A stretch of 64,000 bases of DNA from an uncultured Gemmatimonadaceae bacterium (GTDB lineage Bacteria; Gemmatimonadota; Gemmatimonadetes; Gemmatimonadales; Gemmatimonadaceae), in contig CAWHHI010000020.1 in the NCBI GenBank assembly GCA_963829055.1, forward strand, positions 608,001-672,000. Direction: 5' to 3'. The notes beneath the pieces were generated by a model. It worked only from the letters and a program-made list of their open reading frames with translations. It was not told where the DNA came from and did not search any database. The translations under genes and the position numbers were made by a program. Positions 1,280-61,876 of this stretch are shown here, piece after piece. Numbering within the stretch: position 1 is the stretch's first letter; each line of letters opens with the position of its first letter.

Positions 1280-3097
1280 ATGTCCGTGTCGCGCATCCCA
1301 AGTCGAGCGAGCGCCGTCGGTTTGGTGGTATTAGTTGCGTCGGCTGCTCTGAGTTGCGGCAAGGGGGTGACCGACGCCTCATCCGGTTCTCCGAACACGG
1401 TCGCTTCAGTCGCCGTCGCGCCGGAGTCGGTGTCGATCCCCATCTCCAGGACGGCACAGCTCGAGGCGACGCTGCATAACGCAGCGGGGGATGTCATTAG
1501 CGGTAGGGCGGTGAGCTGGTCGAGCTCTAATCTCGCGGTTGCAACGGTCTCGACGTCCGGTCTCGCAACAGCCGTCGCCGTCGGGAACGCAGTTATTACC
1601 GCGACCAGCAACGGGAAGTCAGGGCGCGCGGACGTAACCGTCGTGCCCACGCCCGTAAATCGCCTGCTCGTGACGCCATCAACGGCATCGGTTGCCTCCG
1701 GGTCGACGCAGACGTTCACCGCCACAGCGTATGACGCCGACGGCAGCATCGTTGCGACGCCGTCCGTATCGTGGACCTCATCGAACACGGGCGTCGCAAC
1801 GGTCAGCGCTTCTGGCGTTGCGAGTGGCGTTGCTGGCGGGCTCGCCACGATTTCAGCCAGGTCCAGTGACAAGACCGCGAGCGCGACGCTCGCGGTGGTC
1901 TCGGCCGCGTCGTGCAAGCTGGTCGACGGCGCCGGCGCTGTCCGGACCTCACCGCTCGCCAAGCCAGGTTACCTGCAATCGGTCATCGACCCGGATTTTG
2001 GCACGACCATCACGCGCATTTCGGGCGATCCCGGAGCGCCGATCCCCGTGGTCGGAGGGACGTGGGGTACGACGGTCTATGGCAATTACCCGAAGGATCC
2101 GGCGTGGAACGCCGACCAGTCGCTTCTGCTTCTGAAACACACGGGCACCTCGCAAGCAGGGTTTCTCTTCCTCGACGGCGAGACGTATCGGGTGCTATTG
2201 GCGCGGCGCGGTCCCAGTGGCGTCATCGATACGCGCTGGCACCCGACGATGCCCGACATCATGCTGTGGGTGTCCGCGGACGGAAGCGTCAGCCACTGGA
2301 ACGTCAGGACCAACACGTCCATCGCGAAGTTTCGAGCGTCGGGATATTCCGGCGCGAGCTTCGGAAGCTACGAGGGAAACCCATCGCGCGACGGCAGGTA
2401 CGTCGCTGTACAAGCCTCGCGTAACTCGGACGGTCATGTCGTTGCTTTCGTCGTCGACGTGGACGCGGGAACCAGGTCCGGGGACGTCGACCTGACGGCC
2501 GCGAACATTACGGATCTCGACTGGGTGTCGGTCTCGGAAGGTGGCGGCTATGTCGTGGCGTACGGGACGATCGACGGCCGGCAGCAACGCACGAAGGTGT
2601 GGCGACGCGACGGGACTGCGGTGGGCTACTGGCAGGACTTCACCTTCGGCCATTACGACCTCGGGCTCGACGCGGCCGGCAACGAGGTCGCCTTTGGCGC
2701 CGTGGGCCAGTCGCCTTACGCCCATCACTTCGTCGCCCGGCGTCTGGATTCGGGGGCGATCACCGACGTCTCCGGCGCCCTAACGAGTTTCAACTGGCAC
2801 GCGACGACGCGCAACACCGCGCGCTCGGGCTGGGGCTATGCCGCCACGAACGACCGCACCGGGTATCCACTGGACGGGGAGATCTATGCGGTCAAGCTCG
2901 ACGGGTCGTTCACGGTGGAACGCTACGCGCACCATCGCGCGAACAACATCGACTACGACTCGGCCCCGTTCCCGACCCCCTCACCCGACGGCCGACGCGT
3001 GCTGTTCGCGTCGAACTGGGGCGAGGCGAGCGGGAGGCCGGTGCAGGCCTACGTCGTGGACACGCGGCAACTCTGCCCGAACGGGCTTCCGCAGTAA
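1280..3097 (+). CDS. Lipoprotein with 2 Big_2 (Ig-like group 2) repeats and a C-terminal beta-propeller
   Basis: Lipobox-like ALSC; repeats WSSSNLAVATVSTSGLATAV and WTSSNTGVATVSASGVASGV; PD40/TolB-like C-terminus PTPSPDGRRVLFASNW; intact ORF 1226..3097. Confidence 0.8.
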   Translation: MSVSRIPSRASAVGLVVLVASAALSCGKGVTDASSGSPNTVASVAVAPESVSIPISRTAQLEATLHNAAGDVISGRAVSWSSSNLAVATVSTSGLATAVAVGNAVITATSNGKSGRADVTVVPTPVNRLLVTPSTASVASGSTQTFTATAYDADGSIVATPSVSWTSSNTGVATVSASGVASGVAGGLATISARSSDKTASATLAVVSAASCKLVDGAGAVRTSPLAKPGYLQSVIDPDFGTTITRISGDPGAPIPVVGGTWGTTVYGNYPKDPAWNADQSLLLLKHTGTSQAGFLFLDGETYRVLLARRGPSGVIDTRWHPTMPDIMLWVSADGSVSHWNVRTNTSIAKFRASGYSGASFGSYEGNPSRDGRYVAVQASRNSDGHVVAFVVDVDAGTRSGDVDLTAANITDLDWVSVSEGGGYVVAYGTIDGRQQRTKVWRRDGTAVGYWQDFTFGHYDLGLDAAGNEVAFGAVGQSPYAHHFVARRLDSGAITDVSGALTSFNWHATTRNTARSGWGYAATNDRTGYPLDGEIYAVKLDGSFTVERYAHHRANNIDYDSAPFPTPSPDGRRVLFASNWGEASGRPVQAYVVDTRQLCPNGLPQ

Positions 3098-3115
3098 CGC
3101 GCGCCCGCGGCACGC

Positions 3116-3799
3116 CTAACGAAAGTCGTCGGCGAGGTTCGCGCTGTCGTAGGGCAGCAGCCTCGCCGGTGGCGCGACGTACACGCCGCCCTCCTGCGTA
3201 TCGCGCAGCACAGTGGCGCCCGCACCGATCACGGTACGGTCGGCGATCGTTAGGCCGTCGCGCACCGTGGAGTGGATGCCGACGAAGCAGTAGGAGCCGA
3301 TCTTCACGTAGCCGGCGATGGCGATCATGCCGACGAGGAAGCTGTGATCCCCGATCGTCGAATTGTGCCCGATGTGGACGCCGGACCCCATGTACACGTT
3401 GTTGCCGATCGTGACGAACGGGTGGATAACGCTGTGCTCCAGGATCCAGCAGTTGTCACCGATCGTCAGGTCCGGCCACGTGTGCGCGCGCGAGCTGACG
3501 TAGCTCACGAGGTCGTAACCCTTCGCCTTCGCCTCGGCGTACTTCTCGGCGCGCAGCTCGTTCACGCGCCGGAAGCTCACCGAGATGTGCATCGCGTGCG
3601 TGTCGGGCGGGTGAGAGCGCTCGATGTCCTCGAACGGGACCACCGGCAGTCCCAGCATCGTCCTTTCGGTGATGTAGGCGCCATCGACCGTGAACGCGAC
3701 GACCTCGTGCGGCGAGTCGTGCGTGAGCACCGTGTGCGCGAAGCAGGCCATTTGGCCGTTTCCGAAGAGCACTACCTTGCGGGGTTTCATGTTCTTCAT
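3116..3799 (-). CDS. Sugar O/N-acetyltransferase, NeuD/PglD-type hexapeptide-repeat family
   Basis: KVVLFGNG N-terminal motif; hexapeptide repeats TIGDNCWI, TIGNNVYM, IGHNSTIGDH; ATG at 3799 overlaps the upstream TGA. Confidence 0.85.
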   Translation of the reverse strand: MKNMKPRKVVLFGNGQMACFAHTVLTHDSPHEVVAFTVDGAYITERTMLGLPVVPFEDIERSHPPDTHAMHISVSFRRVNELRAEKYAEAKAKGYDLVSYVSSRAHTWPDLTIGDNCWILEHSVIHPFVTIGNNVYMGSGVHIGHNSTIGDHSFLVGMIAIAGYVKIGSYCFVGIHSTVRDGLTIADRTVIGAGATVLRDTQEGGVYVAPPARLLPYDSANLADDFR

Positions 3800-6017: not shown

Positions 6018-7089
6018 TCACACGCCGACGGCGGCGTTAGGCGGTCGACGATACGCCGGGAAGAACCCCGGCGACGCATTGTCTGTCCGCAGCGACTCGT
6101 CACGCACGTTCGCCAGCTGATTGTACCGTTCGTCGTCGAACACAACGCGTACTGTATGGAACTCCGCTTCCAGCGGCGAGAAACCCGCTCTTGAAGCGGT
6201 GGAGTGACCCGCCACCTCCGCCGAGTCCTCCTCCGAGATTCAGCAACGTGGCGCCGAGATCCTTCGCCCACTGTCGGACGAAGTCGAACATCAGCTTCGA
6301 CGGCGCCTTTGGGAAGTGAACCTCGGCGGTGCCGCCCAGGTGGTATTCGGCAAGTCCATCGACCAGCAGGAACAGCCCGCTCGCGGCGACGTCTCCGTCC
6401 GGCCCGCGCACCGTGCACAGGTGAAGGCGGTCTCCGAGCATTGCCCGGAGCTCATCGAAGTACCGCTCGGAGAAGAAATAGAACGCACTCGCCGAATTGC
6501 GTTCCATCGTGGCGCGGTAAACTACCTGGAAGTCCGAATACGCGGTCCAGTTATCCATTTCGACCGTGTATCCCATGCGGATGAGCCGCGCGATATTGCG
6601 CCGGTGATCGAGGCGAGTCTCGGCCTGCCACTGCTCATAGCTCCTGGCCAAGTCCACGTACACGACACTCCCATGATGGACCACGGCCCCAGCCGCTCCA
6701 TAGAGTGCGGCCGGCATCGAATAGAACGGATGCAGCCGGATGAACGCGCTCACCAAGCCACGCTCGCGGCCAACATCCCGGAGTGCCTGTAGCGAGGTGT
6801 GGAGCAGGTCGGGCCGAGCGCCGCTGGTCGTGATCGGGCCAGAGTAGCCATACGGGCTGGTCGCGTCTCGCCAATCCGGTGGCGCGTTGAGGTCGGAGGG
6901 AAGCTCGCGCACCAGCAGTGGCATGAGCAGGGCATGCTCGCCCTCTTCGACGTAGAAGGCGACGGGTTCTCCGCACTCGTAGTTGCCGGCAACACGGCAA
7001 TACGCGGGAAGGTGGTAGGCGTCGTGAGGAGCACGGTCGAGGAAACGCTGCCACCGCGCGTCGTTCAGCGAAAGGAAGTCGGCGATCAT
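6018..7089 (-). CDS. FemAB-like GNAT-family acyl/aminoacyl transferase (3' frameshift)
   Basis: DATSPYGYSGP, FIRLHP, YHLGGT, LNLGGG...LHRFKSGF; C-terminus continues in ORF 6018..6215 (GFFPAYR). Confidence 0.8.
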
Positions 7090-7663
7090 GCTGATGAATC
7101 AGGCCCCCGCGGCAGGCTTAGGCAACCTTAGAGCGGTCTCCGGCTCGAATTGGTGTTGCACATGCGCAGCAGACTGTGGGGTCATACAACAATCTGCGCA
7201 GCGCTAATTGAGGCCACGCGAAAACCCGGAGCGGAGGTCTAATTGGCAAGTCAATGGTACGCAAGAAGATAAGCGTCTACGAAAAACCACGTTTCGCCGG
7301 GCCGTCGAGCGCCGGATGTGCTATGGACAATTCCCGTACGCCCATTACAATGGGCTAGGCTGCTACGATTAGACTTCATCAATCTAACGTTAGGCAGCGT
7401 CGAGGTGGAGAGCCGCCCGTTGCGTCGAGGTCGCCTGACACCACGTCACGCCTCGAGACAGCGAACAGAAGCGTATTGTGTCGGCGGGCGGGGGGTCACG
7501 TGGAAATGAATTGTTTGTGCAGGCTCTCACCGAGCATTCTCGGTGTGGCTCGAGCCGATGTTCGCGTAACGACGCCGGGATGGCGTCGTGCTCGGACCAG
7601 GCACGTCGCTACGCCGCACGAGCTGCCGGCCTCACCGTTGCGCCTAACGCCATCACAGCAGCG

Positions 7664-8287: not shown

Positions 8288-8294
8288 GGCGAGC

Positions 8295-10745
8295 ATGTCA
8301 ATCGTTCAGAAGGACCGCAACCACTCTCGCCGCGCAGCTACGATCCGGCGACAGTCTGACTGAACGTGAGCCCATCGTCGCGATGACATTCCCGCGAGGG
8401 GATCACGCTTTCGGATATCTTCAGCATCATTGCGCCGGCACGTGGTGCTGGTCCTCGCCGCGACCATAGCGATCGGCTCACTCGCCGCGCTTTCGGTCTT
8501 TCGGGAAACCCCGACCTACCGCGCGACCGCCACGCTTCGGCTCACCGACACGCGAAGCTCGATGACCGGGGCACTCGGCCACGGGGCCAGCGGACCCACG
8601 GCAGGGCACCAACCCCATGCTGTCGCAGGTCCAGCTCCTCAAGAGCAAGGCGCTGATCGGTGCGGTGGTGGATTCGGTGGGACTGCGGCTCCATCCGGTA
8701 GAGCGCGGATTCTCGGCCTCCGTGCTGAGCCAGGTCCGTGTCGATCCGGGGGTAGTGCAGGACACGTTCTTCCTCGCCTTCTCCAACGACGGATACACGG
8801 TCAGGAACGGGTCCCGTGACACCCGCGTCGCCTACAACGCGCCGTACCAGGCGGTCGGTGTGAGCTTCGCCGTCACGGCGAAGCCCCCGGTGGATCGCGG
8901 CACGCTCGTGCTGTCGCCGCGCGAGCAGACGATCGACGACTTCATCCTCAATCTCCGCGTAACGCCGCGCGATGAGACGAACGTCGTGGACGTCTCCTTT
9001 TCGGACGCGGTTCCGCAGGTGGCGCAGCGCGTCGTCAACACGCTCGTGAGCGAGTTTCAGGACGTCGACATCCGGCAAGCGCAGGGTGAGTCTCGGCGCC
9101 GCCGCATCTTTCTCGCTGAGCAACTCCGTGAGATCGACGGGCAACTGTCCAAGTCGGAAGGAGCGCTCGCTTCGTTCCGCAGCCGCGAGCAGGTGTTCAG
9201 CTCTCGCGAGAAGTTCCAGGCGCAGCAGACGGCGCTGATGACGCTCGACATTCGCCGCGAGGAGCTCGACGCGGATCGTCGCGTGTACGAGTCGCTAGTG
9301 CAGAAGCTGCAGCAGGCATCCGGCGACCAAAAAGATGATGAGCTGCGAACGCTCATCGCCGCGCCTGATGTCAGCACGAACCCCGTGGTCTCTCAGCTGT
9401 ACCAGCAACTCGCCCGGTATCAGACCTCGCGTGACTCGCTCACCACCGGCGAATGGCGGAGCGCCCCGGGCAATCCGGACGTGGCGCGCCTCGATCAGCT
9501 GATCTCGTCGACCGAGCAGCGACTCCTCGGCGCCGTCCGTGGACAGATCGCGACGATCGACGTGCGACGCGACGCACTGGGGACACTCCGGACGCGGAAC
9601 GCGGCCGCGATCGAGGCACTGCCGCGCGCCGAGTCGGCCGAAGAGCGACTCGTTAGGCAGGTGGAATCCAACCGCCTCCTGGCTGACCGCCTGAAGGACG
9701 AGTACCAGAAGGCGCGGCTGGCCGAGGCCGTGGAGGCGGGGCAGGTCGAAGTCCTGGACCTTGCGTCGTTGCCGTATCGGCCCGTCGCCCGGCTACGGAC
9801 GCTGCGGCTGCTACTTGGCGTCCTGGTCGGACTGACGCTCGGCGTACTCGGCGCATTGCTCATCGACAGCACGAACGCCCGCGTCCGGCGCCGCGTCGAC
9901 ATCGAGGAGGAGATGCGCGTCCCGGTGCTGGCTGTCATCCCGCGAATCGTGCCCGAGGCGGACGGCCATTCGCTGCGTCGGCTATCGGCGAGACTGGTCT
10001 CCAAGCGCGGGAACGCTCGTGCTGCACGACGGAACGGCCAGAGTGTACGCCCACAGAGCGCGGCTGCCTTCATGACGCCGGCGGGTAGCGAGGCATTTCG
10101 CCTGCTGCGTTCGAGCCTGAAATGGGCCCAGCGGGATGGCTCCGGCAAGACGCTCGTCATCTCGAGCGCCCTCTCCGAGGAGGGGAAGACGACCACGTCG
10201 GCGAACCTCGCCGTGGTGTACGCGCTCGAGGGAAAGCGAGTGCTGCTGATCGACTGCGATCTCCGCCGGCCACGACTGCACCAGGTTTTCCGCGTGCCGC
10301 GTAGCCCCGGGGTCGCGCAGGTTCTCCGAGAAGACATTGGTCCGGCGGCAGCGGTGCGGGACACGTTCTTCCACGGGCTCTCCTTTCTCCCGGCGGGTCG
10401 GGACACCGGTGGCGATCACCGACTACATCGGCTCCGATCGCATGCGAGCGCTGCTGGCGGCACTGTCGGATCACTTCGACATGATCATCATCGATACGCC
10501 GCCGGTTCTCGCAGTTGCCGACGCGGTCGCACTCGGCGCCGCTCGTTGATGGCGTTCTGTTGGTGGTCGGCGCTGGCACCACTGACCGCCATGCGGTGGA
10601 ACAGGCGCTCGGTCAGCTGGGGAGCACAGGCGCGCGGGTCGTGGGTGCGGTGCTCAACGATTCGCGCGGTGAGGTGGAGCGGTATGGTGGCAGCGACTAC
10701 TAACGTGTACCAGGACAACTACGCCGATATCGACGAGCGCCTAGC
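8295..10745 (+). CDS. wzc: Polysaccharide co-polymerase / tyrosine autokinase (Wzc family; frameshifted, ends approximate)
   Basis: Wzz-like N-terminus (YRATATL, SQVQLLKS), coiled coil, TM helix, EAFRLLRSSL, Walker A SALSEEGKTT, LLIDCDLRRP, IIIDTPP, Tyr-rich tail. Confidence 0.85.
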
Positions 10746-10777: not shown

Positions 10778-12200
10778 GTGGGCACCGCACTCGATCGTCT
10801 CTATTCGCCGGGTCGTCGGCCTGGCGGCACGGCACGACCAACCGGCGGATCTTCGCCGCGATGGTCGTGGTTGGCGCCGCCACGCTGTTGGCCAAGGTCG
10901 CTCGCGATGGCGAAGGACGTGGCGGTTGCCTCCTACTTCGGGACCTCCGACGCGGTCGACGCGTACTTCATCGCTTTGACGGTGCCGACGTTCGCGATCA
11001 ACGTGCTCGCCGGCTCGATTCCGGCCGCGCTGATCCCGGCGTACCTGCGCGTCCGGGAACGCGACGGTGTCGCCGGGGCCGGTCGCTTGTTAGGCAACGT
11101 GCTGATGCTCGCAGGCACGGCGATCGGCGTCTCGTGCCTCGTGCTTGCGCTTGCTCGCGCCCGTCCTCATGCCGATCGTGGGGGCACGGTTCAGCAGCTG
11201 AGAAGCTGGCGCTCACCCAGCACCTGTTCCTCCTCGTGCTTCCGGGGGTGCTCGTCTCCGGGATCTCAGGAATGTTCGCAGCCGTCCTCAACTCGCACGA
11301 ACGGTTTCTGCTTGCCGCGGCCACACCGGCGTTCATGTCGATCTTCAGTATCGCGTTTCTGGTCGCGGCGGCGGACCGTTGGGGGATCTACGCACTCGCG
11401 ATCGGCCTGACAGCCGGCTATGTCGCCGAGCTCGCCGTACTGACGTGGAGCCTGCGATCGAGGAACCTGCTGACGGTCCCGCGCCGAGCCAGCTGGCGTG
11501 ACCCCGACGTACAGCTCGTCCTCGGACAGTACGCGCCGCTCGTCATCGGCGGCGCGGTGATGAGCAGCTCGCCGCTGATCGACCAGGCAATGGCCGCGTC
11601 GCTCGGACCAGGCAGCGTCGCGCAGCTCGTCCTACGCGAGCAGGCTCGTCACCGCGGGGCTGGGCATCGGCGTGACGGCGCTGTCGACCGCGATCTTCCC
11701 GCACTTCTCGCGGATGGTGGCGGCCGGCGATTGGTCCGGGTTGCGTCATACGCTTCGCACGTATTCCCGTCTGGGCCTCGTGGCAGGGGCCCGTGTCGTC
11801 TTAGCTGATCGTCGCGTTCTCGGAACCACTCGTTAGGTTGGTCTTCGAGCGCGGCCAGTTCGTGGCGAGCGATACTCGAGCCGTGGCACACGTCCAGGCG
11901 CTCTACGCGCTCCAGATTCCGTTCTACGTGCTCGGCATCGTGGGTGTGCAACTCCTGCACGCGATCAGCGCGAACCGGGTGCTCATGTGGGTGAGCATCG
12001 GGAATTTCTTCACCAACATTATCGGGAACTACATCTTCATGCGGCTGTGGGGCGTGGCGGGAATCGCGGCGGCCACTTCCATGGTGTACGCCATTTCGAT
12101 GGTCGTGATCCTCACCGCTGTCGGAAAGCGCTTGCGCAGCCTCGAACGCGAGAGCTCGCCGCCGCGAACCACGCACCCTGACTCACGGGTGCCAGCATGA
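10778..12200 (+). CDS. MurJ/MviN-family (MOP) flippase in EPS locus (frameshifted)
   Basis: AKDVAVASYFGTSDAVDAYFIA, IDQAMAASLGPGSVA, VFERGQF; many hydrophobic segments across frames. Confidence 0.8.
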
Positions 12201-20070: not shown

Positions 20071-20071
20071 C

Positions 20072-27196: not shown

Positions 27197-27436
27197 ACCC
27201 TCAGGGGGTGGTGCGATCTTGCCAATCAGTTTTCGATGACGTCCGGATGACGACCCGCGCTTTGGGCGCGTCACCCGCACGGCGGCACGGTCCTTCACGC
27301 GACCCCCATTTTGTCGCGTGATCACATCGTTAGGCGGTCCGGCGGCGCAGAGTTACTGTGATGCAGCGCTCATTCAACGACAGCGCGTCGGGACAGTGCA
27401 ACCATCATGGCGAAATGCGAGTGCCGCGCGATCACG

Positions 27437-35308: not shown

Positions 35309-35469
35309 GTGGCCCTCATTATCAGCTCGGGATCGGTTTCAGCCACAGCGCCGCGGGCGCAAGGGACAACAAGGAACAACAAGGGATCGACACGTTAGGC
35401 GCTGAGTACGTTGGGACGACCGATCGCAAGCCACGGCCCATGGGATGTCGCTGCCGCGCATGAGGACGT

Positions 35470-38127: not shown

Positions 38128-39611
<1,484 letters not shown>

Positions 39612-39647
39612 CAATCCTCATCGTTAGGTAAGTGAATCATGCAGAGT

Positions 39648-49194: not shown

Positions 49195-51948
49195 TTATTC
49201 GCCCGCAACGCGATGATGGGGTCGACTCGCGCCGCCCGTCCGTGTCGGTACGACGGCCGCCAGCAGCGCGACGCCGAACAGCACCGCGGCCGCAAGCGCG
49301 AACGCCAGCGGGTCGCGTGCCGACGTCTGGAACAGCAGCGGCGCCACCGTCGGACCGGCGGCGATCGCGATCGCGAAGCCGATCACCGCCCCGACGATCG
49401 CCACGCGCACCGCGCCGTCCGATCACCATGCGGCCGATGTCGCGCGTCCCTGCGCCTAGCGCCACGCGGATGCCGAGCTCGCGGATGCCGCCGCGAGACA
49501 TCGTACGCGAGCACGCTGTAGAGGCCTAACGCCGCGACGACGACCGCCAGCAGGCCGAACACGCCGAACGCCGTGGCACCCAGCTGCCACGCGCGCATCT
49601 GCGGGTTCACCAGCGTCGTCGAGCGGCTGCACGTCGATGAACGGCGCGTCCGGGACGCGCGTCTGCAGTTCGCGCCGCAGCGACTTCCACCGCCTTGCCG
49701 CGATCACCGACCGGTCGCACGAACAGCACGCGACTGTGCGACCAGGCTGGGCGCCTGGTCGAGCGGCACGAAGAACTGCACGGCCGGGTCCTCGAGGAGC
49801 GCGGAAGCGGCGGGAATTCTCCGACGACGCCGACGATCTGGGCGCACGGCATGGTGTCGCCGCCGACCTTCATGCAGTGACCGATCGCTTCCTCGTTAGG
49901 CCACCAGAGCTCGGCCAGCGTCTTGTTCACGACCACCACGCGCGCCGACGTGCCCCGGTCGGCCTCGGTGAAGCCGCGCCCGCGCAGAATCGCGTATCCC
50001 CATCGTCCGGAAGAAGTCGCTCGCGACGGCGTTGAAGTACGGACCGCCTGCGCGCGTGAGCGGCAGCGAGTCTCGGCCGGGCACCTTCACCTCCTCGGCC
50101 CAGAGCGTAGAGAACGGCAGACCGCCGGCGACGCGCCGCATGCTCGACGCCCGGCGCCGCCCGCGCCGCAGTCGAGCAGCCGCGTGTACAGCGCGTCGAT
50201 CTCCGACGTCGCGCGATGCGCATGCCGGACGTGCGCACCTTGACGACCAAGCACACGATCAGTCTCCAGACCTAACGGCAGCGCCTGAATGCGCTCGCAG
50301 GCTGCGCACGAAGAGCACGGCGCCCGACGAGAAACACGACCGTCAGCGCCGCCTGCGTGACGAGGAGCAGCACGTCCGCGTGCGCGAACGCACCGGGCCG
50401 CCGCTCTGGCGCCGGCGCGCAGCGCGTCCGAAACCGCAGGGCGACTCGACTGCAGGGCCGGGAAGCAGACCGCTCACGATCCCCGCCAGCGACCGCGGCG
50501 ATCGCCGTGTAGGCCACGAGACGCAGATCGACGGCGCGGCCGGCGGCGAGTCGGACGTGAAGAGCACGCGCCGGACGAGACCACCGCCCCACACGGTCAC
50601 GATGATCGCGGCGATACCGGCCGCGAGCGCGAGCAGCACCGTCTCGCACACGAGCTGCCTGACGAGTCGCGACCGCGATCGATGCCGAGCGCGATTCGCA
50701 CCGCGACCTCACGCTGGCGCGCGATACCGCGCGCGAGCTGCAGGTTCGCGACGTTGGCGCATGCGATGAGCAGCACGAGGAGCGATACCGCGCCGAGCAG
50801 GACGGCGACCTTCGCGTCGGTGCTGTCCGCGCGGGCCTCGTCGCGGCAGCACCGAGACGAGCATGCACGCTCGGGCTCAGCGTCGCGATCTCACGAGGCG
50901 ACTCGCCGTCGCGAACGATCGCCCGCGCGCAGCGCCGCCGTCGCGATCGCCGATGCCCGCTCGGGCGTCACGCCGGCCGTGAGACGCGCGCGATGATCTG
51001 AAGCCAGTAGCCTGACGACTGCGCAACCATCTCTGCGTACTCCTCCGCGCGTGACGTTGGCCGTGAGCGGCACCCAGGCGTCGACGACTTCGCTCGTCAC
51101 GCCGGTGAAGCCCTGCGGCGCGACGCCGACCACGGTGTATGGTCGTCGCCGATCGTGAGCGTACGACCGATCGCCGACCGGTCTGCCCTCGAACTGTCGC
51201 TGCCAGAATCCGTAGCCGAGGACGAGCACTCGCGGCGCGGTCGGGTTGCCATCCTCTTCGGGGAGGAAGAAGCGGCCGACCGCGGGCCGCACGCCGAGCG
51301 TCGTGAAGTAGTTCGCGGAGACGCGCATGCCGCGCAGCTCATGCGCGTCGCGCCCGCGACCGAATCGCCATGTCGTCGGGCGAATACGCCGCGACCTGCT
51401 CGAACGCCGACGCGGCCGATCGCATGTCGCGATAGATCGGGTACGACAGGACGCGCTGCTGGCGCGTCGTTGCCGTCGACGCGTCGGCCCAACTCGCGGA
51501 CACTGACGACGCGTCGCGGATCGGTGACGTGCGCCGGCGCGCGCAGCAGCAGGCGGTCGATCGACGCCGAACATCGTGACGTTCGCGCCGATGCCTAACG
51601 CCAGCACGAGCACGACGACGGCGGCGAACCCGGGCTGCGATGCGGAGCGAGCGCGCGGAGTACGCGAGGTCCTGGCCGAGCGTCTCCCACCACGCCTGTC
51701 GTCGCTCGCGCGTCAGCCGCCGCTGGTCGACGCGCGCGATCTCGGCTCGTGCCTCGGCGACGTCGCCGAACTCGCGCGCCGCAATGTCACGGGCGACGTC
51801 GGCTGGCGTGCCTCGCGCGACGAGCTCGGCGACGCGGCTCTCGAGGTGGAAGCGGATCTCGTCGTCGACGTCGCGCTGAACGCGGCGGCCGGACTCCGGG
51901 AGGTTGAGCAGGCGGCGAATGCCGCTCACGCGCATTCTCGCGGCTCAT
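49195..51948 (-). CDS. Duplicated MacB/FtsX-type orphan permease (ADOP family; heavily frameshifted)
   Basis: [11 protein letters not shown] prefix domain, [48 protein letters not shown]. Confidence 0.85.
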
Positions 51949-52486: not shown

Positions 52487-53749
52487 CTACTGACACGCCG
52501 CCACCGCCTCGCGCAGCAGCGGAAGCACCGCGCTCGATCTCGGCCATCGACACGGCGCCGACGGAGAGTCGGAACCAGCCCGTGTCTTCCTTCACGCCGA
52601 ACGCCTGGAATGGCACGACGCCGAAGCCCGCCGCCTTCAGCAGGTAGCGGCGGACGTCGTCGTTCGTGCGCAGCGTCTGGCCGTCCGGGGTCCGCTTGCC
52701 GTTCAGCGCGAAGCGCGCGCTCAGGTAGATCGCGCCCATCGGCAGCCGTCGCGTCGACCGGCAGGCCGTCGGCCCGCATCGCCATGATGCCGTCGTACAG
52801 CGCGTCGAGGCGCTGGCGCAGCGCCGGCCGTGAGTCGGCGTCGCGATACGTGCGCGACCTCGTTAGGCGCGTCGAGCAGCTTCGCGGTCGCGATCTGCTC
52901 CGCGCGCGGCGCCCACGCGCCGACGTGGCCGAGGAAGTTGTTCATCGAGTCGATGATGTCTTCGCGGCCCGACGACCCAGCCCACGCGCACGCCCGTCGC
53001 CGCGAACGCCTTCGAGATGCCGTCGACGTAGATCGTGTACGGCGCCATCTCCGGACGCAGCGACACCGGGTCCACGTGCCGCGTGTCGCCGAACGTGAGC
53101 ATCCAGTAGACCTGGTCGTACATGACGTACAGCGGCCGCTCGCCGGCGCCGCGCCGCGCGTTCTCCTCGAGCACCAGGTCGCAGATCTCGCCTAACGCTT
53201 CCGGCGTGAACGCCGTGCCGGTCGGGTTGAGCGGCGAGTTGAGCGAGAGGAGCCGCGCGCCACGGATCACCGGCGCGAGCAGCTCGCGCGTCGGGCAGGA
53301 ACGTCGTCGTCGCGCGACGTCGGCACCGGGACGGCGACCGCGCCGGTCAGGTGACAGTAGTGGTTGTTGTTCCACGACGGCACCGGGAACACGACGCGAT
53401 CGCCGGGATCGACGAGCGTGCGGAACGTGCCGTAGATGCCCGGGCGCGAACCGGCACGTGACGAGCACCGAGCTCGCCGGGATAGTCGAGTCCCAGCCCG
53501 CGCTCGTAGAACCGCCGCACGGATTCGCGAAGCGGCGCGACGCCGTTGGACGGCGGATAGTTCGTCTCGCCGCGGCGCAGCGCCTCGGCGATCTCGTTCT
53601 CGAGGAACTTCGGGATCCGGAATTCCGCCGGCGAGAAGTCGCCGACGGTCAGGTTGCACACGCGCTGTGCCGGCCTCGGTCATCGCGCGAATCTCGCCGG
53701 CGATCCGCAGGATCTCCGAGCCGGACATGCCTTCCGACATTGCCGACAT
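52487..53749 (-). CDS. PLP-dependent aminotransferase class I/II (frameshifted; start may lie further upstream)
   Basis: SEILRIA, NLTVGDF, NSPLNPTG, YDQVY, DGISKAFAATGVRVGW, WFRLSVG. Confidence 0.88.
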
Positions 53750-54233: not shown

Positions 54234-55384
54234 ATGGCACTGCTCGCGTACGTCGCGCTCGATCACGGCCGTCGTCACGCTGCTGCCGTTCCAGTTCGCG
54301 CTCCCGACCGAGCCGCGCGTGATGCTCACCGGCGGGCTGTTCGACGTGCTGGCGAACGTCGGTCTGTTCGTGCCGCTCGGCTTTCTGTACGCGGTCGCTC
54401 GACAGGACGCGAGCCGTGCCGCCCGCGCGAGTCTTGCCTCGTGGCGCTGCTCGCGAGCGCGTCGATCGAGTCGGTGCAGCTCTTCGAGGTAACACGATTC
54501 GCGTCGCTGTCGGACGTGCTCGCCAACGGATGCCGGCGCCTACCTCGGCGCGGTGCTCCAGCGGCGCCTGTCCCGACGCATTGCGATGGACGCGCGGACC
54601 GTCGGGCGGCTGTCGCTCGAGCTGCCGCTCATGGCGACTCGTCTATCTGCTCGTTCCGCTGCTCTGGCTGGACGGGCTCGCCGGCGCCGAATCGGCGACG
54701 CCGCTCTGGCCGCTGCTGGCGCTCGGACTGTTCGGAGCGAGCCTGCTCTCTGCGGCGCAACGACATCACTTCGGCCCGAACCATCTGCTGTCGCGCGAAG
54801 CTGATGGTCGCGGCCGCATGCGGGTGGTTTCTGCTGGGTGCGTTTCCCGGGCTCGCGCCGCGCGCGTCGATCGTGTTGCTTCTGATGCTCGCGGCGATCG
54901 GCGCGTTCGTCTGGGTGCGCTCGGAGGACCAGAAGCGGAGCGCGCTCGATCAACCGCCGCTTCGAGTCGAGGGCGCTCTCGGAAGCGGCTCCATTCTACG
55001 CCGCGTATCTGCTGCTGCTCGTCGCCCCGGTCGCCGGACTTTCGGCATCGTCATGGCGTGGCGCGCTGGGATTCGAGGCGACGCGGGGACTGGGGAACGA
55101 CCCCGGTGCTGCACATCGTCGAGACCGTGGCGGCGTTCACCTTGCTCGGCTACATGCTGGCCGAGTTCCGCGGCCGACGCGAGGCGCGATTTCGGGACGG
55201 TGTGCCGCACATGGCCGCCTGGTGCGGCGGTGCCGCGCTGGTGGCCGAGGTGCTCGAGGGGTTCCGCCAGGACGGCGGCGCGAGCGCCTGCGCTGGGCGC
55301 TTCTCGTCGTGGGCGTCGCTGTACGGCGCGTGGCTCTATCACCTGCAGCGGGCGCACGTTAGGCGACTGCTCGGGCGGGCGTAA
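54234..55384 (+). CDS. VanZ-family membrane protein (frameshifted, start approximate)
   Basis: TLLPF, DVLANVGLFVPLGFL, SIESVQLF...RFASLSDVLANG. Confidence 0.7.
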
Positions 55385-55482: not shown

Positions 55483-57010
55483 ATGCCCCGCACGCTCTTC
55501 ATGCATCGCGTCGCCCTCGCCGCCCTGCTCTTCCCTGCCGTCGTCCAGGCGCAGGCGCCGAACCGCTCGCCGGCCGCCGGCGAGCCCAAAGTCGGTCCGC
55601 CACGAGGTACCGTGATCGTGGTGGGTGGTGGGTCGATGGGCCCGGAGATCTACTCCCAGTTCATCGAGGCGGCGGGAGGGCCGGACGCGCTCATCATCGA
55701 CGTGCCGAATGCCGGCGGCGCCGACTCGTACGGGCAGGACGCGCCGGGCACGCGCGGGTGGAAGGCGGCCGGCGCGAAGAACGTCCACGTCCTGTTCACG
55801 AAGGACCGGAAGATCGCGGACTCCGACTCGTTCGTGGCGGTGATCAAGAAGGCGGGCGGCGTCTGGTTCGAGGGTGGGCGCCAGTTCCACCTCGTGCGAG
55901 GACTACGGCGGTACCAAGACCGAGCAGGCGTTCCGCGATGTGCTCGCTCGCGGCGGTGTCGTCGGCGGATCGTCGGCAGGCGCCTCGATCCTCGGCGACT
56001 TCCTCGTGCGCGGTGCGCCGTCGAGCAACAACCGGATCATGGATTATCCGGGATGCGAGAAGGGATTCGCGTATCTGCGCGAACGTCGGCATCGATCAGC
56101 ATGTGGTGGCGCGCGAGCGACTGCCCGACCTCGCCGATTCCATCATGACGAAGTACCCGAAGATGCTCGCGATCTCGGAGGACGAGGGCACGGCGTGGGT
56201 AGTAAAGGGCGACACGGCGACGATCATCGGGCGGAACAAGGCATTCGTCTACGGCGGCAACGACCCGAACGGATCCTGGCGTTCCGTTCCTCACGCTGCG
56301 ACCGGGCGACATGTACAACCTCGCGACGCGGCGAGTCATGCATCGCGCGGTCAGCGACTCGCCGCTGACGCGTCGCGTTCGTCGATTCGATCTTCGCGAA
56401 ATACAACGACGCGTCCGCTGGCGGGGCGACGGTGCTCGTCGCGCAGGACGGGAAGGTGCTGGTGAACAAGTCGTGGGGAATTCCGCCGCAGGCGCGTTAC
56501 ATGCCGACGACGACGGTGCCGCAGTTCACGTTAGGCGCGATGTCCGGCGTGTTCACGACGTTGTGCTCGCAGATTCCCGAGCCGCCGCCAGGCCGGCCGA
56601 ATGCGGCCGCGCGCGACACGACGCAGCCGGACACGACGCCGAATCCGACAGCAGGGATGACGCCGTTTCAGCGGTGCGTCGCGCGGCAGATCAGCGGCCC
56701 GATCGGCATGCACAAGACGACGGCAACGCCGGATGGTCAGGTGCAGTCGAACGTCGACGAGCTGTACCGACTCGAGCTCGGGCTCGAGAATCCTCGCACG
56801 TGGAAAGACATCGACCCGACGAAAGGCTGGGAGGCGGACACGGCCAACGGCGTTGCGCGGCTCGGCGTCTACGGCGCCGAGGGCGGAAAGCGAAGCGCGT
56901 TCGTGCGGGTTCCGGACAAGAAGGCGGTGGTCATCATCCTCACGAACGATGACTCGGCGGACGCGAAGGGAATGGCTAACCGGATCGCGGAACGGCTACT
57001 CTCGCGTTAG
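55483..57010 (+). CDS. Exported cyanophycinase-like peptidase S51 with a C-terminal degenerate serine-hydrolase (beta-lactamase-fold) region (frameshifted)
   Basis: Signal peptide; VIVVGGG, GVWFEGGRQ, GGSSAGA, IDQH...RER, ISEDEGTA; tail ATVLVAQDGKVL...FVRVPDKKAVVIILTN. Confidence 0.75.
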
Positions 57011-57221: not shown

Positions 57222-59255
57222 TCAGGGAACCGCAGCCGGAGATCCCTGCACGTTAGGCTGCTCTGGCACAATGCCTCTCGTGTCGTCAGCCGGAGCTGCA
57301 TCGCGGTCACGATACCAGTAGGCGACCGCCAGGAGGAACAGGCCGGCGAGGAAGTAGCTCGCGACTCGCCATCCGATCACGAGCGATGACGCTTCCGCCA
57401 TCGCCTTCAGCGCCGCGAAGATCGCGAGGCCGAGCCCGACGTGGCGGAGCACTCGGATCCCGCGGTGCCGGCCGATGAAGATCGCCGCGACGCCGACCAC
57501 CGCGTAGTACAGGATCAGCAGGAACGTCGCCGCGTCCGGCGAGTAGGCGTGCGACAGCTCCGTGTTCCCCCACATGAACGTCACCGCTGCGCCGGCGAGC
57601 CTGACAGCTGTCCGCGTTTCCAGCGTGCCCGGGCCCACGTCGAGGAGCTGCACGCGCGACGCGTTCCACGAGACGACGAGCCATGCCGCCGACATCGCCA
57701 ACGCCGCGAGCGACGGCGCGGTCAGGAACGGCGTGTACTGGTAGCTCGGGCGGTCGAGCAACTGCTGGAACGTCCACACCGTCAGGATCGCGAGGCCGAG
57801 CGCGATCGGTACGGCGAGGAGCCGCGTGCGCTCTCGGCGCAGCAGCAGCGACAGCGCCGCCGCGTGCGCGGCGAGCGCCACGCAGGACTCCACTGCCCTG
57901 TCCTCGAGCGCGAACAAAAGCGCGGCGCCGCTCGTGATGCCGCCGACCATGAGGTGCGTGGGACGGACGGCGGGCTGCAGATACGCAGCTGCCGCAGCTG
58001 CCGCCGTCCATCCCAGGGCAACGAGTGTGCGCGCGGTCATCGTGTCGTGAACGCTCGCGAGGGCTACCGCACCTAACGCCAACGGGAGCACCGCCGCCGT
58101 GAACAACGGCTGGCGCGTTCGCGGCCCATCCGCAGGAATGACTTCACCGCGTCCCGCGACGAACACGCTCGCGTACGCCGTCACGGTTCCAAGCGCCGCC
58201 AGGATGAGCAGGTCCGTTGCGGGCGCGCGGTCGATCGCCTGCGCCGCGATCGTTCCGAGAAGCGCGACGATCGCCGACCGACTAATGCGCGCGCCCCACG
58301 TTCCCCGCGTGATGATGAGCGCGGTCCAGGCGATCGCGACGGCGAAGATCGCCGGATAATCCTGCGCGTACGCTTCGAGACTGCGCGGCCCGACTCCCGC
58401 CGCCGACGCCGTGTACAGCCAGCAACCGATGGTTGTCACGGCGACCGCCGTCCGCCAGGCGCGGCCGCGTAGCGCGGCGAGTCCGCAGGCGAGCACCACG
58501 TACCCGTAGATCAGCAGCGCGATGATGCTGCCCGACTCGCGCGACGTCACGAACGGCGCGATGAGCGCTCCGCCAACGCCGACGCTGAACAGCGCCTCCT
58601 CGTCGCCGACCCACGCGAGCACGGCCAGCGCGACCGACGCCGCAGCCGCTGCGCCGAGCGCCACCCACGACGGCACCAATTCGAGATATGGACCCGCGCC
58701 CCACGCATCGACGTGCACGAGTGCGAGCGCCAACGCGAGCAGTGTGCTGCCGAATCGCTTCGAACCGCGCGACCGCACCCGCCATCCAACGACCGCGACC
58801 GCCGCCGCGCCGAGCGCACCGAGGAACACGCGCAGGCCCGGCCCGATCTTGCCGTGGGCGATGGCCCAGCTGAGAAACGCGCCCGCGCCGAGCAGAATCG
58901 TGAGCGACGCCAGGGCGAGCGTTCCGTAGCGACCGATCAGCGATTCGAGGTCGAGCGATGGTCGTTCTGTGCCTGCTCGGCGATCCGCCGTCCGCCGTTC
59001 GGCCTCACGGCGATCGGCCTCGAGCTTCGTGACGATGGCCGGGTCCGCGCACGGTCTCGACCGGGCGCTCGAGCCGACATGGGCGTGGACGCGCGTGTCC
59101 CGTCGAGTCGATCGACGACGTCGCGAAGCGCCCGAACCTCCCGCACGAGGTTGGCGACCGTCTGTTCGAGGAGGTCGAGACGCTCTGGCAAGCGGGGTCG
59201 GGACGGGGAACGCGCGCACTTCGAGCTTCGCGCCGATCGACGGATCGAGGCGCAA
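57222..59255 (-). CDS. DUF2339-like polytopic membrane protein (5' end frameshifted, start uncertain)
   Basis: DLESLIGRYG...GAGAFLSWAIAHGKIGPGLRV; C-terminal WRVASYFLAGLFLLAVAYWY. Confidence 0.75.
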   Translation of the reverse strand: MRLDPSIGAKLEVRAFPVPTPLARASRPPRTDGRQPRAGGSGASRRRRSTRRDTRVHAHVGSSARSRPCADPAIVTKLEADRREAERRTADRRAGTERPSLDLESLIGRYGTLALASLTILLGAGAFLSWAIAHGKIGPGLRVFLGALGAAAVAVVGWRVRSRGSKRFGSTLLALALALVHVDAWGAGPYLELVPSWVALGAAAAASVALAVLAWVGDEEALFSVGVGGALIAPFVTSRESGSIIALLIYGYVVLACGLAALRGRAWRTAVAVTTIGCWLYTASAAGVGPRSLEAYAQDYPAIFAVAIAWTALIITRGTWGARISRSAIVALLGTIAAQAIDRAPATDLLILAALGTVTAYASVFVAGRGEVIPADGPRTRQPLFTAAVLPLALGAVALASVHDTMTARTLVALGWTAAAAAAAYLQPAVRPTHLMVGGITSGAALLFALEDRAVESCVALAAHAAALSLLLRRERTRLLAVPIALGLAILTVWTFQQLLDRPSYQYTPFLTAPSLAALAMSAAWLVVSWNASRVQLLDVGPGTLETRTAVRLAGAAVTFMWGNTELSHAYSPDAATFLLILYYAVVGVAAIFIGRHRGIRVLRHVGLGLAIFAALKAMAEASSLVIGWRVASYFLAGLFLLAVAYWYRDRDAAPADDTRGIVPEQPNVQGSPAAVP

Positions 59256-59398
59256 GCTAGCTCAGCCCGCGTCGAGTGGCGATGGGTCGCCGGTTCGTCA
59301 CAACGTGGCACGCACGGAGCGAAACCGGTCGAACTATTTCGGTGGTGCGTCTGTCCGAGCTAGACCGGCCGACCCTCCCTCAACTCGAGACCGTCCGC

Positions 59399-61834
59399 AT
59401 GGATACGCTGCTTCGCGACCTGCGCTACCTCCTGCGCTCACTGCGCTCAGCCCGCGCGTTCTCGGCGGTTGTCGTGCTCACGATCGCGGTTGCCGTCGGT
59501 GCCAGCACCGCGCTCTTCAGCGTCGTCGATCCGCTGCTGCTCCGCGCCGAGCCGTTCAGGGATGCGGGCAGGTTGATGGCGCTGTGGGAGTCGCCGCCAC
59601 GGGCGGACGGTGGGGTCGCACCGGGAAAGAACGAGGTCTCGCCGGGCACGTTCCTCGACTGGAGCGCCGAGCGTGCGGTGTTCGATGGTGTGGCGGCCGT
59701 CGCGCCGTGGCGGCCGAACCTCACTGGCATCGATGAGCCCACGCGTCTCAACGCGACCGCCGTGTCGCGCGACTTCTTCCAGACGCTGGGCGCCACGCCG
59801 TTGATTGGCCGAGTGTTCGTGCCCGAGGAAGCGACCACGGGCAAGAACTCGGTGGTCGTGCTGTCCTACGACTTCTGGCGGCAGCGGTTCGGCGGCGACT
59901 CGGGGATCGTCGGGCGCGAGATCTCGCTCAACGGTCGGCCGTACGCGGTGGTGGGCGTGATGCCGGAACGCTTTCAGCTTCGGTATCCGCTGCCGCAGGC
60001 GTCGGACCTCTGGCGTCCCATGGTGATCGAAGGAGCGACGGCGACGAATCGTCAGGCGCATTACCTGTATGTCTTCGGACGCCTGCGCGCCGGTGTCTCG
60101 CCGGAGCGCGCGCAGTCCGCGTTGACGGCGCTCGCCGCGCGTCGCGCGACGGATTTTCCCGCGACGAACCGCGGCTGGGGCGCGCGCGTGATCCCGCTGC
60201 GCGACGACATCGCGAGTGACGTGCGGCCGCTGCTGCTCGTTGGATCGGCCGCCGTTGCGCTGGTGTTGTTGATCGCCTGCGCGAACGTGGCGAACCTGCT
60301 GCTGGCGCGCGGTGCGACGCGCGCCCGAGAGGTCGCGCTGCGTACCGCGTTAGGCGCCACTCGACAGCGCATTGTCCGGCAACTGGCGACGGAGAGCGTC
60401 GCGCTCGCGCTCCTTGGCGCGGTGTTGGGCCTGCCGCTCGCGCGCGTGCTCGTCTCCGTGCTCGTGCGATTCGGACCTCCCGCCTTCCAGGCGAACAGCG
60501 AGATCGCGCTCGACGTGCGCGCCGTGATTGTTCGCCGTAGCGCTCGCAATCGTGACCGGCGTTGTGTTCGGGCTTGCGCCGGCGTTGTATGCGGCGCGGA
60601 CATCGGCAGGTGACGCGCTCCGCGAGGGCGGCCGACGCGTGTCGAGCGGGAGAGCCGGCGCGCGTACGCGTGATGCGCTCGTCGCGGTCGAGGTCGCGCT
60701 GGCGGTACTGCTGCTCATCGGCGCCGGCCTAACGCTGCTCAGCTTCTCCCGTCTCCTGCGTGTCGACCCAGGGTTCGATGCACGCAACGCGCTGACGTTC
60801 GAGCTCGGGCTTCCCGCTTCGACATACCAGACGCCGGAGGCCGTCACGCAGGCGCATCATCGGCTCGTCGACGCGCTGCGCGCACTACCGGGCGTGACGC
60901 AGCGCGGGCGCGTCGAGTCATGTGCCGCTCGCGGGCGGCAACATGACGACCGGACTGGAGATCGAGGGGAGGCCCGTCGTGGCGCCGGAGCGTCCGGCAG
61001 AGGTGAACTATCGCGTCACGACGGATGGGTTCACCGCCGCGTCAGGCATGACGATGCGACGCGGTCGGGCGATCGCCGCGAGCGACGCGGCCGGTGGCTG
61101 GCGCGTCGCCACGATCAGCGAGACCGCCGCCGCGCGACTGTTCCCGGGCGAGGATCCGATCGGCCGTCGCGTTCGCGTGTCCGGCGACTCCGCGTGGCTC
61201 GCAGATCGTTGGCGTGGTGCGGGACGTCAGGCACACGTCGCTCGAGAGTGCGCCGGGCGTCGACGTCTACATCCCGGTCGAGCGCGAGCCGTCGAACTAC
61301 ATGCGCTACGTCGTCAGGACGAGCGGTGCTCCCGGCGCGCTGGCGCCAGACGTCAGGCGCGCCGTCCGGGCGTTCGATCCGTCGCTGCCGATCGTGGGAC
61401 TCGAGAGTCTCGAGAGCGTGGTGGCGCGAGCGAGTGTCCCGCGCCGGTTCGCGATGCTGCTGCTCGGGTCGTTCGCGCTCATCGCGGTGGTGCTGGCGGT
61501 GGGAGGGGTATACGCGATGGTCGCCTACGCGGTGAGCCAACGCACACATGAGCTGGCGGTGCGCGTCGCACTTGGCGCGCGCCCGGCGGAGGTCATCCGC
61601 GCGGTGATGACCCGCGGCCTCGGCGCCGTGGCCGTCGGCCTGGGCGCCGGAGTCCTGCTCGCGTTCGCGTTAGGTCGAGCGATCTCCGCCCTGCTCTACG
61701 GCGTGAGCGCGCACGATCCGGCGATCTACCTGGCCGCTCCGGCGCTGCTCGGGCTCGTGGCGGTGGCGTCCGCGTTGCTGCCCGCGTTGCGGGCGTCGCG
61801 GATCGATCCGATCGTCGCGCTGCGGGACGCCTAA
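59399..61834 (+). CDS. Duplicated MacB/FtsX-type orphan permease (frameshifted)
   Basis: [66 protein letters not shown]. Confidence 0.9.
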
Positions 61835-61876
61835 CGCCCTGATCCGCTGGTGCCGCCGTGGCCATGGTTACGGCGG

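Follow-up and report, generated by a model that had tools for sequence, protein, structure and literature searches.

The DNA analyzed here, referred to as the window, is a 64,000-nucleotide stretch from an uncultured bacterium of the family Gemmatimonadaceae, C20:608001-672000 of genome G000 (7,784,024 bases in 20 contigs, 86% complete). Throughout, G-numbers denote sampled genomes, with G000 the window's own, C-numbers denote contigs and lowercase g-numbers genera. The first part of the window (1-28000) holds a polysaccharide-synthesis cluster encoding glycosyltransferases, asparagine synthases, a Wzz/GNVR kinase, a MurJ-like flippase and an export protein. Scattered across the window, in genes and between them, is the short word CGTTAGGC, present in full or as the heptamer CGTTAGG. 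The heptamer is found 51 times, 29 on the plus and 22 on the minus strand, and 44 of the copies are the full 8-mer; our recount matches both the numbers and the positions given in the first-pass annotation of the window. Dinucleotide shuffles of the window, which has a GC content of 0.64-0.70, contain 3.18 heptamers on average (standard deviation 1.94, largest 9), with none of 100 shuffles reaching 51. For the full 8-mer the expectation is 0.96 and the shuffle maximum five.

The enrichment extends over all of G000. In the whole genome the heptamer is present 6,391 times and the octamer 5,004 times (forward 2,547, reverse 2,457), one octamer per 1,556 bp, at densities of 0.48-0.80 copies per kb on all 20 contigs. 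Markov models of order 0-3 predict 102-297 octamers, and by the order-3 model no other 8-mer of the genome is as over-represented as CGTTAGGC. When that model is trained with the word masked only 30 copies are expected, an enrichment of about 165-fold. In coding sequence we counted 3,365 copies compared to 149-178 in 10 within-gene shuffles of synonymous codons over 7,516 predicted genes, an excess of about 21-fold against a null that retains the rare codons contributed by the word itself. Genes were predicted with a crude caller of our own whose calls take in about 77% of the genome, and frameshifts in the assembly inflate the counts scored as intergenic. The enrichment accordingly persists both with the whole-genome Markov models (5,004 against 30-297) and with the codon-preserving null that the first-pass annotation had set as a test of its reading. 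In the literature, supplementary files not covered, we found no description of CGTTAGGC as a genomic feature. The matches listed for the 8-mer in full text were primers or constructs only. Among the papers listed in a separate search, none ties Gemmatimonas to uptake sequences.

The positions flanking the word carry at most 0.13 bits each, with only the three-base periodicity of coding sequence visible, so CGTTAGGC is a bare 8-mer and not part of a larger repeat. A repetitive extragenic palindromic (REP) element or a miniature inverted-repeat transposable element was ruled out as there is no conserved sequence beyond the core. Single-base variants are graded by position. Those at positions 2, 3, 5 and 7 occur at about the expected frequency, while at position 1 the C to T variant is 34-fold over expectation and A or G 8-fold. 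At position 8 the C to T change is 42-fold over expectation, G 27-fold and A 5.7-fold. The G to T variant at position 6 is 10.6-fold in excess, and the position 4 variant, CGTCAGGC, 2.9-fold. This profile defines a strict core. Copies show mutual avoidance up to a distance of about 300 bp: pair density relative to the mean is 0.22 at 0-100 bp, 0.44 at 100-200 bp, 0.76 at 200-300 bp and about 1 beyond 500 bp, and gaps shorter than 200 bp number 215 where 611 are expected. The tail of long gaps is exponential (26 gaps of 8-16 kb, 26.5 expected). The genome counts, both kinds of null and the bare flanks support CGTTAGGC as a DNA-level signal across the genome rather than a coding or repeat-element effect, bearing out the core proposal of the first-pass annotation.

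Compared to the crude gene calls, 25 of the 51 window copies are inside an open reading frame (ORF), eight lie across an ORF end and 18 are 'intergenic', with mixed orientation (Table 1). Several of the 18 sit in genes broken by frameshifts, such as the copy at 18097 in an asparagine synthase. All six genes for which the word had been said to supply the stop codon (ending at 3116, 23404, 27437, 34316, 57010 and 61834) indeed end in it, and so do two more, at 16326 (a heptamer) and 52863.

Table 1. Copies of the word in the window. 8-mer, full CGTTAGGC; 7-mer, CGTTAGG only. ORFs are from our own crude caller.
Copy	Position	Strand	Context
7-mer	2779..2785	-	in ORF 1367-3097(+), read C CTA ACG
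8-mer, stop codon	3114..3121	-	TAG stop of ORF 3116-4642(-); kept in 3/3 aligned congeners
8-mer	3248..3255	+	in ORF 3116-4642(-), read GC CTA ACG; absent from 3/3 aligned congeners
8-mer	6035..6042	+	outside gene calls
8-mer	7388..7395	+	outside gene calls
8-mer	7642..7649	-	outside gene calls
8-mer	9651..9658	+	in ORF 8617-11808(+), read C GTT AGG C
7-mer	11831..11837	+	gap between two frames of split MurJ-like gene
8-mer	14378..14385	-	in ORF 13462-14403(+), read GC CTA ACG
7-mer, stop codon	16321..16327	+	TAG stop of ORF 15628-16326(+)
8-mer	16677..16684	-	outside gene calls
8-mer	18097..18104	+	frameshifted asparagine synthase, read GCG TTA GGC within D-E-A-L-G-G-Y
8-mer	19066..19073	+	outside gene calls
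8-mer	19578..19585	-	in ORF 19381-20070(+), read G CCT AAC G
8-mer	20718..20725	+	in ORF 20141-22084(+), read CG TTA GGC
8-mer	22744..22751	-	in glycosyltransferase ORF 22697-23404(+), read G CCT AAC G
8-mer, stop codon	23399..23406	+	TAG stop of ORF 22697-23404(+)
8-mer	26181..26188	-	in ORF 23421-26705(-), read CG TTA GGC
8-mer	26790..26797	+	outside gene calls
8-mer	27328..27335	+	outside gene calls
8-mer, stop codon	27435..27442	+	TAA stop of ORF 27437-28813(-)
8-mer	28391..28398	-	in ORF 27437-28813(-), read CG TTA GGC
8-mer, stop codon	34311..34318	-	TAA stop of ORF 33381-34316(+)
8-mer, polymorphic in nature	34703..34710	+	in ORF 34322-35308(-); run X3 has CGTCAGGC (C at 34706), runs X1 and X2 the word
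8-mer	35393..35400	+	outside gene calls
8-mer	35818..35825	+	in ORF 35470-37836(-), read GC CTA ACG
8-mer	36841..36848	-	in ORF 35470-37836(-), read CG TTA GGC
8-mer	36984..36991	-	in ORF 35470-37836(-), read C GTT AGG C
8-mer	39286..39293	+	S-adenosylhomocysteine hydrolase, P-N in variable loop; kept in 3/4 congeners, CGTCAGGC in the fourth
7-mer	39622..39628	+	intergenic; stretch absent from aligned relatives
8-mer	39926..39933	-	methyltransferase-domain ORF 39659-40492(-); kept in 2/4 congeners
8-mer	44741..44748	+	outside gene calls
8-mer	44974..44981	+	outside gene calls
8-mer	46203..46210	-	outside gene calls
8-mer	48368..48375	+	in ORF 47893-49134(+), read CG TTA GGC
8-mer	48921..48928	-	in ORF 47893-49134(+), read G CCT AAC G
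8-mer	49524..49531	-	outside gene calls
8-mer	49894..49901	+	outside gene calls
7-mer	50271..50277	-	outside gene calls
8-mer	51593..51600	-	in ORF 51339-51935(-), read C GTT AGG C
8-mer, stop codon	52861..52868	+	TAA stop of ORF 52863-53270(-)
8-mer	53190..53197	-	in ORF 52863-53270(-), read CG TTA GGC
8-mer	55357..55364	+	in ORF 55106-55384(+), read C GTT AGG C
8-mer	56529..56536	+	in ORF 56432-57010(+), read CG TTA GGC
8-mer, stop codon	57005..57012	+	TAG stop of ORF 56432-57010(+)
8-mer	57251..57258	+	in ORF 57222-59255(-), read G CCT AAC G
7-mer	58072..58078	-	in ORF 57222-59255(-), read CG TTA GG
8-mer	60348..60355	+	in ORF 59342-60613(+), read CG TTA GGC
8-mer	60727..60734	-	outside gene calls
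7-mer	61668..61674	+	in ORF 61214-61834(+), read CG TTA GG
8-mer, stop codon	61829..61836	-	TAA stop of ORF 61214-61834(+)

Each strand of CGTTAGGC has a stop codon in one frame, and copies within genes use the other four. In G000 genes they are read as xCG-TTA-GGC (1,336 copies), CCT-AAC (937), CTA-ACG (609) and GTT-AGG (456); the two stop frames are found inside genes only 4 and 21 times. A further 1,249 copies are outside the gene calls and 392 at gene edges. The word supplies the stop codon of 448 of 7,499 genes, comprising 250 of the 932 TAA and 198 of the 1,941 TAG stops. The earlier remark that the word forces rare codons holds genome-wide, as 1,341 of the 2,919 TTA codons (46%) are inside it. 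Among peptides able to host the word with no amino acid change, the word encodes 46.6% of PN[VADEG], 22.5% of [SPTA]LG, 19.8% of [SCRG]LT and 9.6% of VR[LPHQR]. The dipeptide PN is present 3,550 times in the proteome compared to 2,532 expected (1.4-fold). When followed by V, A, D, E or G it occurs at 1.18-1.42 times the dipeptide-based expectation, and when followed by L, R, S or T at 0.68-0.87 times. CGTTAGGC has shifted the peptide frequencies of the proteome. The loop hosting the P-N encoded at 39286 is variable, with PN, KK, KD, PK, RS, RD, KT, PD or an insertion at this site in 11 S-adenosylhomocysteine hydrolase homologues.

The G000 assembly is noisy, with single-base indels and many split genes, including those for S-adenosylhomocysteine hydrolase, asparagine synthase, a glycosyltransferase and the MurJ-like protein, and a word generated by long-read basecalling or assembly was therefore considered. 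The word is present in sequence free of this assembly's errors. Six congeners, in fragmented assemblies of 260-1,170 contigs, have 2,501-5,112 copies each. Contigs from four public runs of four studies (2017-2023), aligned to window 16001-36000, match at 97-100% over the word-bearing stretches with all 30 depth bins covered. Among the best 40 of 558 substitutions relative to these runs, one falls in a word copy, the T to C change at 34706 in run X3. The PacBio-finished type strain Gemmatirosa kalamazoonensis KBS708 is as rich, with 104 copies in three 50-kb samples of its two megaplasmids (52 copies per strand, 1.6 expected) and three copies of the word spelled backwards, used as a control. 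Relative to the public contigs the window has single extra bases at 16688, 16887, 17987, 19386, 22127, 22716, 26969, 30283, 31347 and 33430 (among the best 12 of 26 indel rows). Those at 17987 and 22716 are the exact points where the asparagine synthase and glycosyltransferase frames break. The extra bases are assembly indel errors, not pseudogenes, and they fall away from the word. The congeners, the public runs and the finished genome already refute an artefact, which we regard as having next to no chance of being the explanation.

DNA nearly identical to the window (35-56% of sampled words of 16001-26000) was found in 20 public runs, X1-X20, from 17 studies dated 2017-2025, and the species appears to be widespread. 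The habitats are soil, rhizosphere and freshwater sediment. In run X2 a contig joins 23463 to 29057 and leaves out the 5.6 kb between, suggesting that a structural variant exists in nature. Positions 23463-24667 and 29056-30256, in a Big_2-repeat gene and ORF 29058-30278, form a 1.2-kb duplication with about 93% identity.

Only three long stretches of G000 are free of the word, C6:1-55000, C6:600000-620000 and C11:1-45000, all at contig ends. C6:1-55000 and C11:1-45000 encode second copies of genes that are usually single-copy (aroC, DAHP synthase, ftsK, leucyl aminopeptidase, trpG and folD), 46-65% identical to the others. They join the rest of their contigs at duplicated segments (C6:53106-56175 equals C2:34856-37962, and C11:42439-47069 equals C8:435100-439730). 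The word-free ends are most likely chimeric assembly joins to DNA of another organism.

To place the word in the family, we surveyed relatives of G000. The nearest by the hydrolase gene are metagenome-assembled genomes of Gemmatimonadaceae, up to 84% identical. Among 31 relatives, all seven genomes of the window's genus and one of another genus are rich in the word, and most of the others have 6-60 copies, fewer than of the backwards control. Defining word-rich as at least 350 GTTAGGC per Mb (our own tally, from a table with rounded genome sizes), 21 of 151 family genomes, in 11 of 77 genera, qualify. Of the other 130, many are intermediate and about 100 have fewer than 100 copies. These tallies include four unpublished genomes (G013, G051, G052 and G150), all word-poor, and no conclusion rests on them alone. 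The state flips within single genera: G066 and G166 have 5,926 and 6,209 copies and G124 of the same genus 99, and in a second case G057 has 5,148 and G116 991. ComEC of some rich genera is 54-57% identical to that of G000 and of others 45-49%, interleaved with word-poor genomes, so the rich lineages are not one clade nearest G000. Nevertheless the same 8-mer tops the samples of nine rich genera (g1, g47, g55, g80, g35, g69, g76, g62 and g9; GC 63.6-74.1%). No substitute word was found in 40-100 kb samples of word-poor G124, G047 and G016, and a sample of word-poor G007 had a weak ATAGACG signal (21 copies, 3.6 expected).

Individual copies turn over. Between congeners and between strains they are gained or lost by point substitution, three times through CGTCAGGC, and the commonest polymorphism is the C/T transition at position 4 that separates CGTCAGGC from CGTTAGGC. 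Since the first 20 kb of the window barely align to the six congeners, conservation could be scored at five sites only. In this small sample the word is kept in 8 of 18 orthologous comparisons at 75-87% local identity. Conservation at orthologous positions, proposed as a check in the first-pass annotation, was seen at 3114 (3/3), 39286 (3/4) and 39926 (2/4) but not at 3248 (0/3). In the alignment of the 39286 region, one copy is common to two genomes of other genera and missing from the window's own genus.

Other repeats were seen in the same DNA. Repeats total only 66 kb in G000. A perfect heptamer tandem repeat, (GCTATCA) x3.6, is located at 39648-39672 in the spacer upstream of the S-adenosylhomocysteine hydrolase gene. 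It matches many places and contig ends in congeners G003 and G004, and G000 has seven arrays of at least three units; word-poor G124 has a different heptamer array, GCAGAAA. G000 also has 487 copies of a second abundant element, none of them in the window. With a length of about 45 bases, an end in CGCTCGGAATGACA and a start that is often near GATTCCTCGACTC, it resembles a small hairpin repeat of the REP kind.

The anatomy of CGTTAGGC resembles that of the DNA uptake sequences (DUS) of Neisseriaceae and the uptake signal sequences (USS) of Pasteurellaceae. Like them it is short and non-palindromic, is found about once per 1-1.5 kb with no orientation bias and with many copies in genes, and is confined to some lineages of a family. 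The known uptake sequences occur 1,471 times in 1.83 Mb and 1,965 times in 2.15 Mb and show a graded over-representation of mismatched forms (PMC1939737, in excerpt), as seen here for the one-off variants. They are also associated with peptide frequencies that are doubled and with locations at residues of poor conservation, according to parts of PMC2817400, similar to the shifted peptide frequencies of G000. The differences are the phylum, Gemmatimonadota, and the word itself. Word state also switches on and off within genera here.

We tentatively favor CGTTAGGC being a lineage-wide 'self word' under molecular drive at the DNA level, one that may work like a DNA uptake sequence. A sequence-specific reader, whose existence we infer, would favor DNA fragments bearing the word. 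The biased step would most likely be uptake of free DNA by the type IV pilus and ComEC, or else recombination of the incoming DNA. Alleles that gained the word by point mutation would then be copied into other cells more often, and copies would accumulate where proteins tolerate them, in four of the six frames, in variable loops, at stop codons and in spacers. Another copy nearby would add no gain, leading to avoidance at short range. G000 codes for uptake functions: ComEC, a ComEA-like gene, DprA and a type IV pilus cluster with two tandem pilin genes, three minor pilin genes and pilMNO. A ComEC homologue is encoded in all 21 word-rich genomes, and the 10 family genomes with no match in a search run with a stricter first look are all word-poor. 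That DNA joined to G000 at contig ends lacks the word also counts for this reading.

Several observations weigh against an uptake sequence. ComEC (141 of 151 family genomes) and PilM (148 of 151) are near-universal and so cannot account for word richness in just 21 of 151 genomes. No match to the ComP-type receptor family (ComP_DUS, PF16732) was found, with the control likewise silent in all control genomes. Minor pilins encoded next to pilM occur in rich as well as poor genomes. Among rich genomes they are 25-39% identical, no closer than between rich and poor, where a single unchanged word would require a reader that is conserved; the pilin clusters of six rich, one intermediate and four poor genomes contain the same kinds of genes. 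Candidates for the reader were rejected on presence and absence: the integron integrase, ComEC, PilM and a 306-amino acid minor pilin are each found in word-rich and in word-poor genomes. The nine genera share one word with ComEC only 45-57% identical to that of G000. Known uptake sequences drift into dialects, and none was seen among the nine word-rich genera sampled. Inverted, terminator-like pairs, a frequent arrangement of DUS, are scarce here, making up 13 of the 40 pairs within 60 bp. Finally, the polysaccharide cluster has almost no DNA-level counterpart in the six congeners or 150 family genomes and yet is at full word density, while genes with no homologues in relatives are described as carrying no uptake sequences in the part of PMC2817400 consulted. 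For window 8001-28000 nothing above 72% identity was found in the 150 other family genomes, with the asparagine synthase gene alone matched, at 65-70%. Recent transfer between word-rich genera was rejected on this basis. We therefore do not file CGTTAGGC as an uptake sequence despite the matching anatomy.

Of the mechanisms offered in the first-pass annotation, an uptake tag fits best, methylation or repair is disfavored, and a nucleoid protein is a lesser candidate. As the binding site of an intracellular, chromosome-organizing protein, the word would be kept by selection for spread sites. This would suit the even dispersal and short-range avoidance of copies, the range of densities over all 20 contigs, the equal use of both strands and an undrifted word in nine sampled genera, as expected for a conserved housekeeping protein. 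However, no candidate protein was found, 130 of 151 family genomes do without the word, both states in one genus (G066 and G166 versus G124) are odd for a housekeeping function, and individual sites turn over quickly. Known nucleoid proteins also read degenerate sites, not a strict word of 6-8 bases. We regard a binding protein as unlikely. A methyltransferase could instead mark the word, with a repair process like very-short-patch repair converting near-matches, as proposed for HIP1 (highly iterated palindrome 1, GCGATCGC) of cyanobacteria. Both are hyper-abundant octamers in genes and spacers; HIP1 is palindromic and has been linked to methyltransferases, whereas CGTTAGGC is asymmetric. The C/T polymorphism at position 4 and the excess of CGTCAGGC are consistent with such a process. 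Real-time sequencing of single molecules (SMRT) detects 5-methylcytosine poorly, so gene searches carry that part of the argument. They revealed no C5 methyltransferase (PF00145) in six of six word-rich genomes (G000 and five at 92-100% completeness) and no Vsr (PF03852) in G000, at its 86% completeness. The SMRT methylome of G. kalamazoonensis KBS708 has m6A at RGATCY, ATGCAC and CCAGN7TCA only (PMC3974934); the word is not among the methylated motifs of this cultured word-rich strain even though its megaplasmids carry 104 copies per 150 kb sampled. Drive by repair site by site does not predict that copies avoid each other either, making this account very unlikely. Least probable of the biological explanations is a polar recombination or translocation signal. 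Chi and the FtsK-orienting polar sequences (KOPS, or AIMS) are also over-represented octamers, read by DNA-processing machines, and they are strongly co-oriented with replication. A weak leading-strand lean on contig C16 (158 forward and 111 reverse on the positive-skew arm, 187 and 209 on the other) is in keeping with polarity. Genome-wide, in 50-kb bins sorted by GC skew, the copies number 759 forward and 700 reverse at positive skew and 978 and 976 at negative skew, confirming the lack of polarity noted earlier. Samples of other word-rich genomes are similar (27/20 and 28/28 in genus g55, and 33/38 in a further sample), and the enrichment of CGTTAGGC is far above that of Chi in E. coli.

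Integrons provide the closest match to the word itself. The consensus of the attC and attI core sites has an R' box, GTTRRRY, and an R'' box, RYYYAAC; in attC sites an inverted pair of the two, 50-150 bp apart, forms a hairpin, and the sites stand in one-way arrays beside intI. The 7-base core of CGTTAGGC, GTTAGGC/GCCTAAC, is identical to the R'/R'' core of attC sites in cassette arrays of this order. The earlier remark that the word could not be matched to a described motif should be amended for this core, although the copies in G000 do not stand in the setting of an attC site. In G021, a word-poor member of a sister family, the attC sites of a cassette array on C95 start with GCCTAAC and end with C-GTTAGGC, and within 24 kb one strand bears 34 of the 35 full 8-mers. 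Large one-way arrays of this kind are at G021:C95:1-40000 (about 35 attC sites in 24 kb), G019:C3, G021:C43 and G021:C80, all in word-poor sister-family genomes. G000 encodes an integron integrase at C20:208041-208958 (265.7 bits, cut-off 265). Around it (C20:197000-218300) the word is mostly on the minus strand to the left (12 of 14) and mostly on the plus strand to the right (10 of 11). Five attC-like pairs, in C20:197000-218300 and C20:119251-191861, share GCCTAACGC...GCAACGYACGTTAGGC and have the full 8-mer on both arms; one or more cassette arrays are likely. An integrase above the NCBIfam cut-off is encoded in 88 of 151 family genomes, whereas the portion of PMC8618304 consulted gives 20% for Gammaproteobacteria. 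In Vibrio, natural transformation feeds integron recombination (PMC12614218, in part). It is accordingly conceivable that an integrase relative or another reader of R boxes drives or uses the copies, directly or through uptake tuned to cassettes, and constraint on integrase specificity could explain the missing dialects. Against this, how abundant the word is bears no relation to the presence of an integrase (found in 11 of the 21 word-rich genomes and 77 of the 130 others, own tally), and most copies are single, in both orientations and in ordinary genes, with no partner box or hairpin. Neighboring pairs 40-160 bp apart show no excess of the attC type (44 -+, 52 ++, 42 +-, 40 --). Cassette insertion sites in genomes (attG) have only a GWT consensus (bioRxiv 10.1101/2022.09.11.507474, as excerpted), and we see no way for an integrase to multiply single R boxes. 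A tie to integrons is thus quite unlikely. Equally doubtful is the version in which the word is an R box in second use, with a conserved reader, an integrase relative or a factor for uptake or recombination tuned to attC, tagging the chromosome by molecular drive. In that version, nine genera with ComEC only 45-57% identical would share an undrifted word because integron specificity is fixed. The coincidence with the R box is notable all the same in a family with so many integrase-bearing genomes, and it offers a reason for the missing dialects.

The word can serve as a lineage barcode, as it exposed about 120 kb of foreign DNA at three contig ends of G000. If CGTTAGGC marks DNA for uptake or recombination, this would imply that soil bacteria exchange genes selectively by sequence, in a phylum plentiful in soil and difficult to cultivate. 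To our knowledge it would be the first such system outside the Proteobacteria. The question can be tested directly, as one word-rich type strain is in culture, with its genome finished and its methylome published. The identity of the word with the integron core, in a family rich in integrases, likewise raises a connection of DNA uptake with the capture of cassettes that can be tested.

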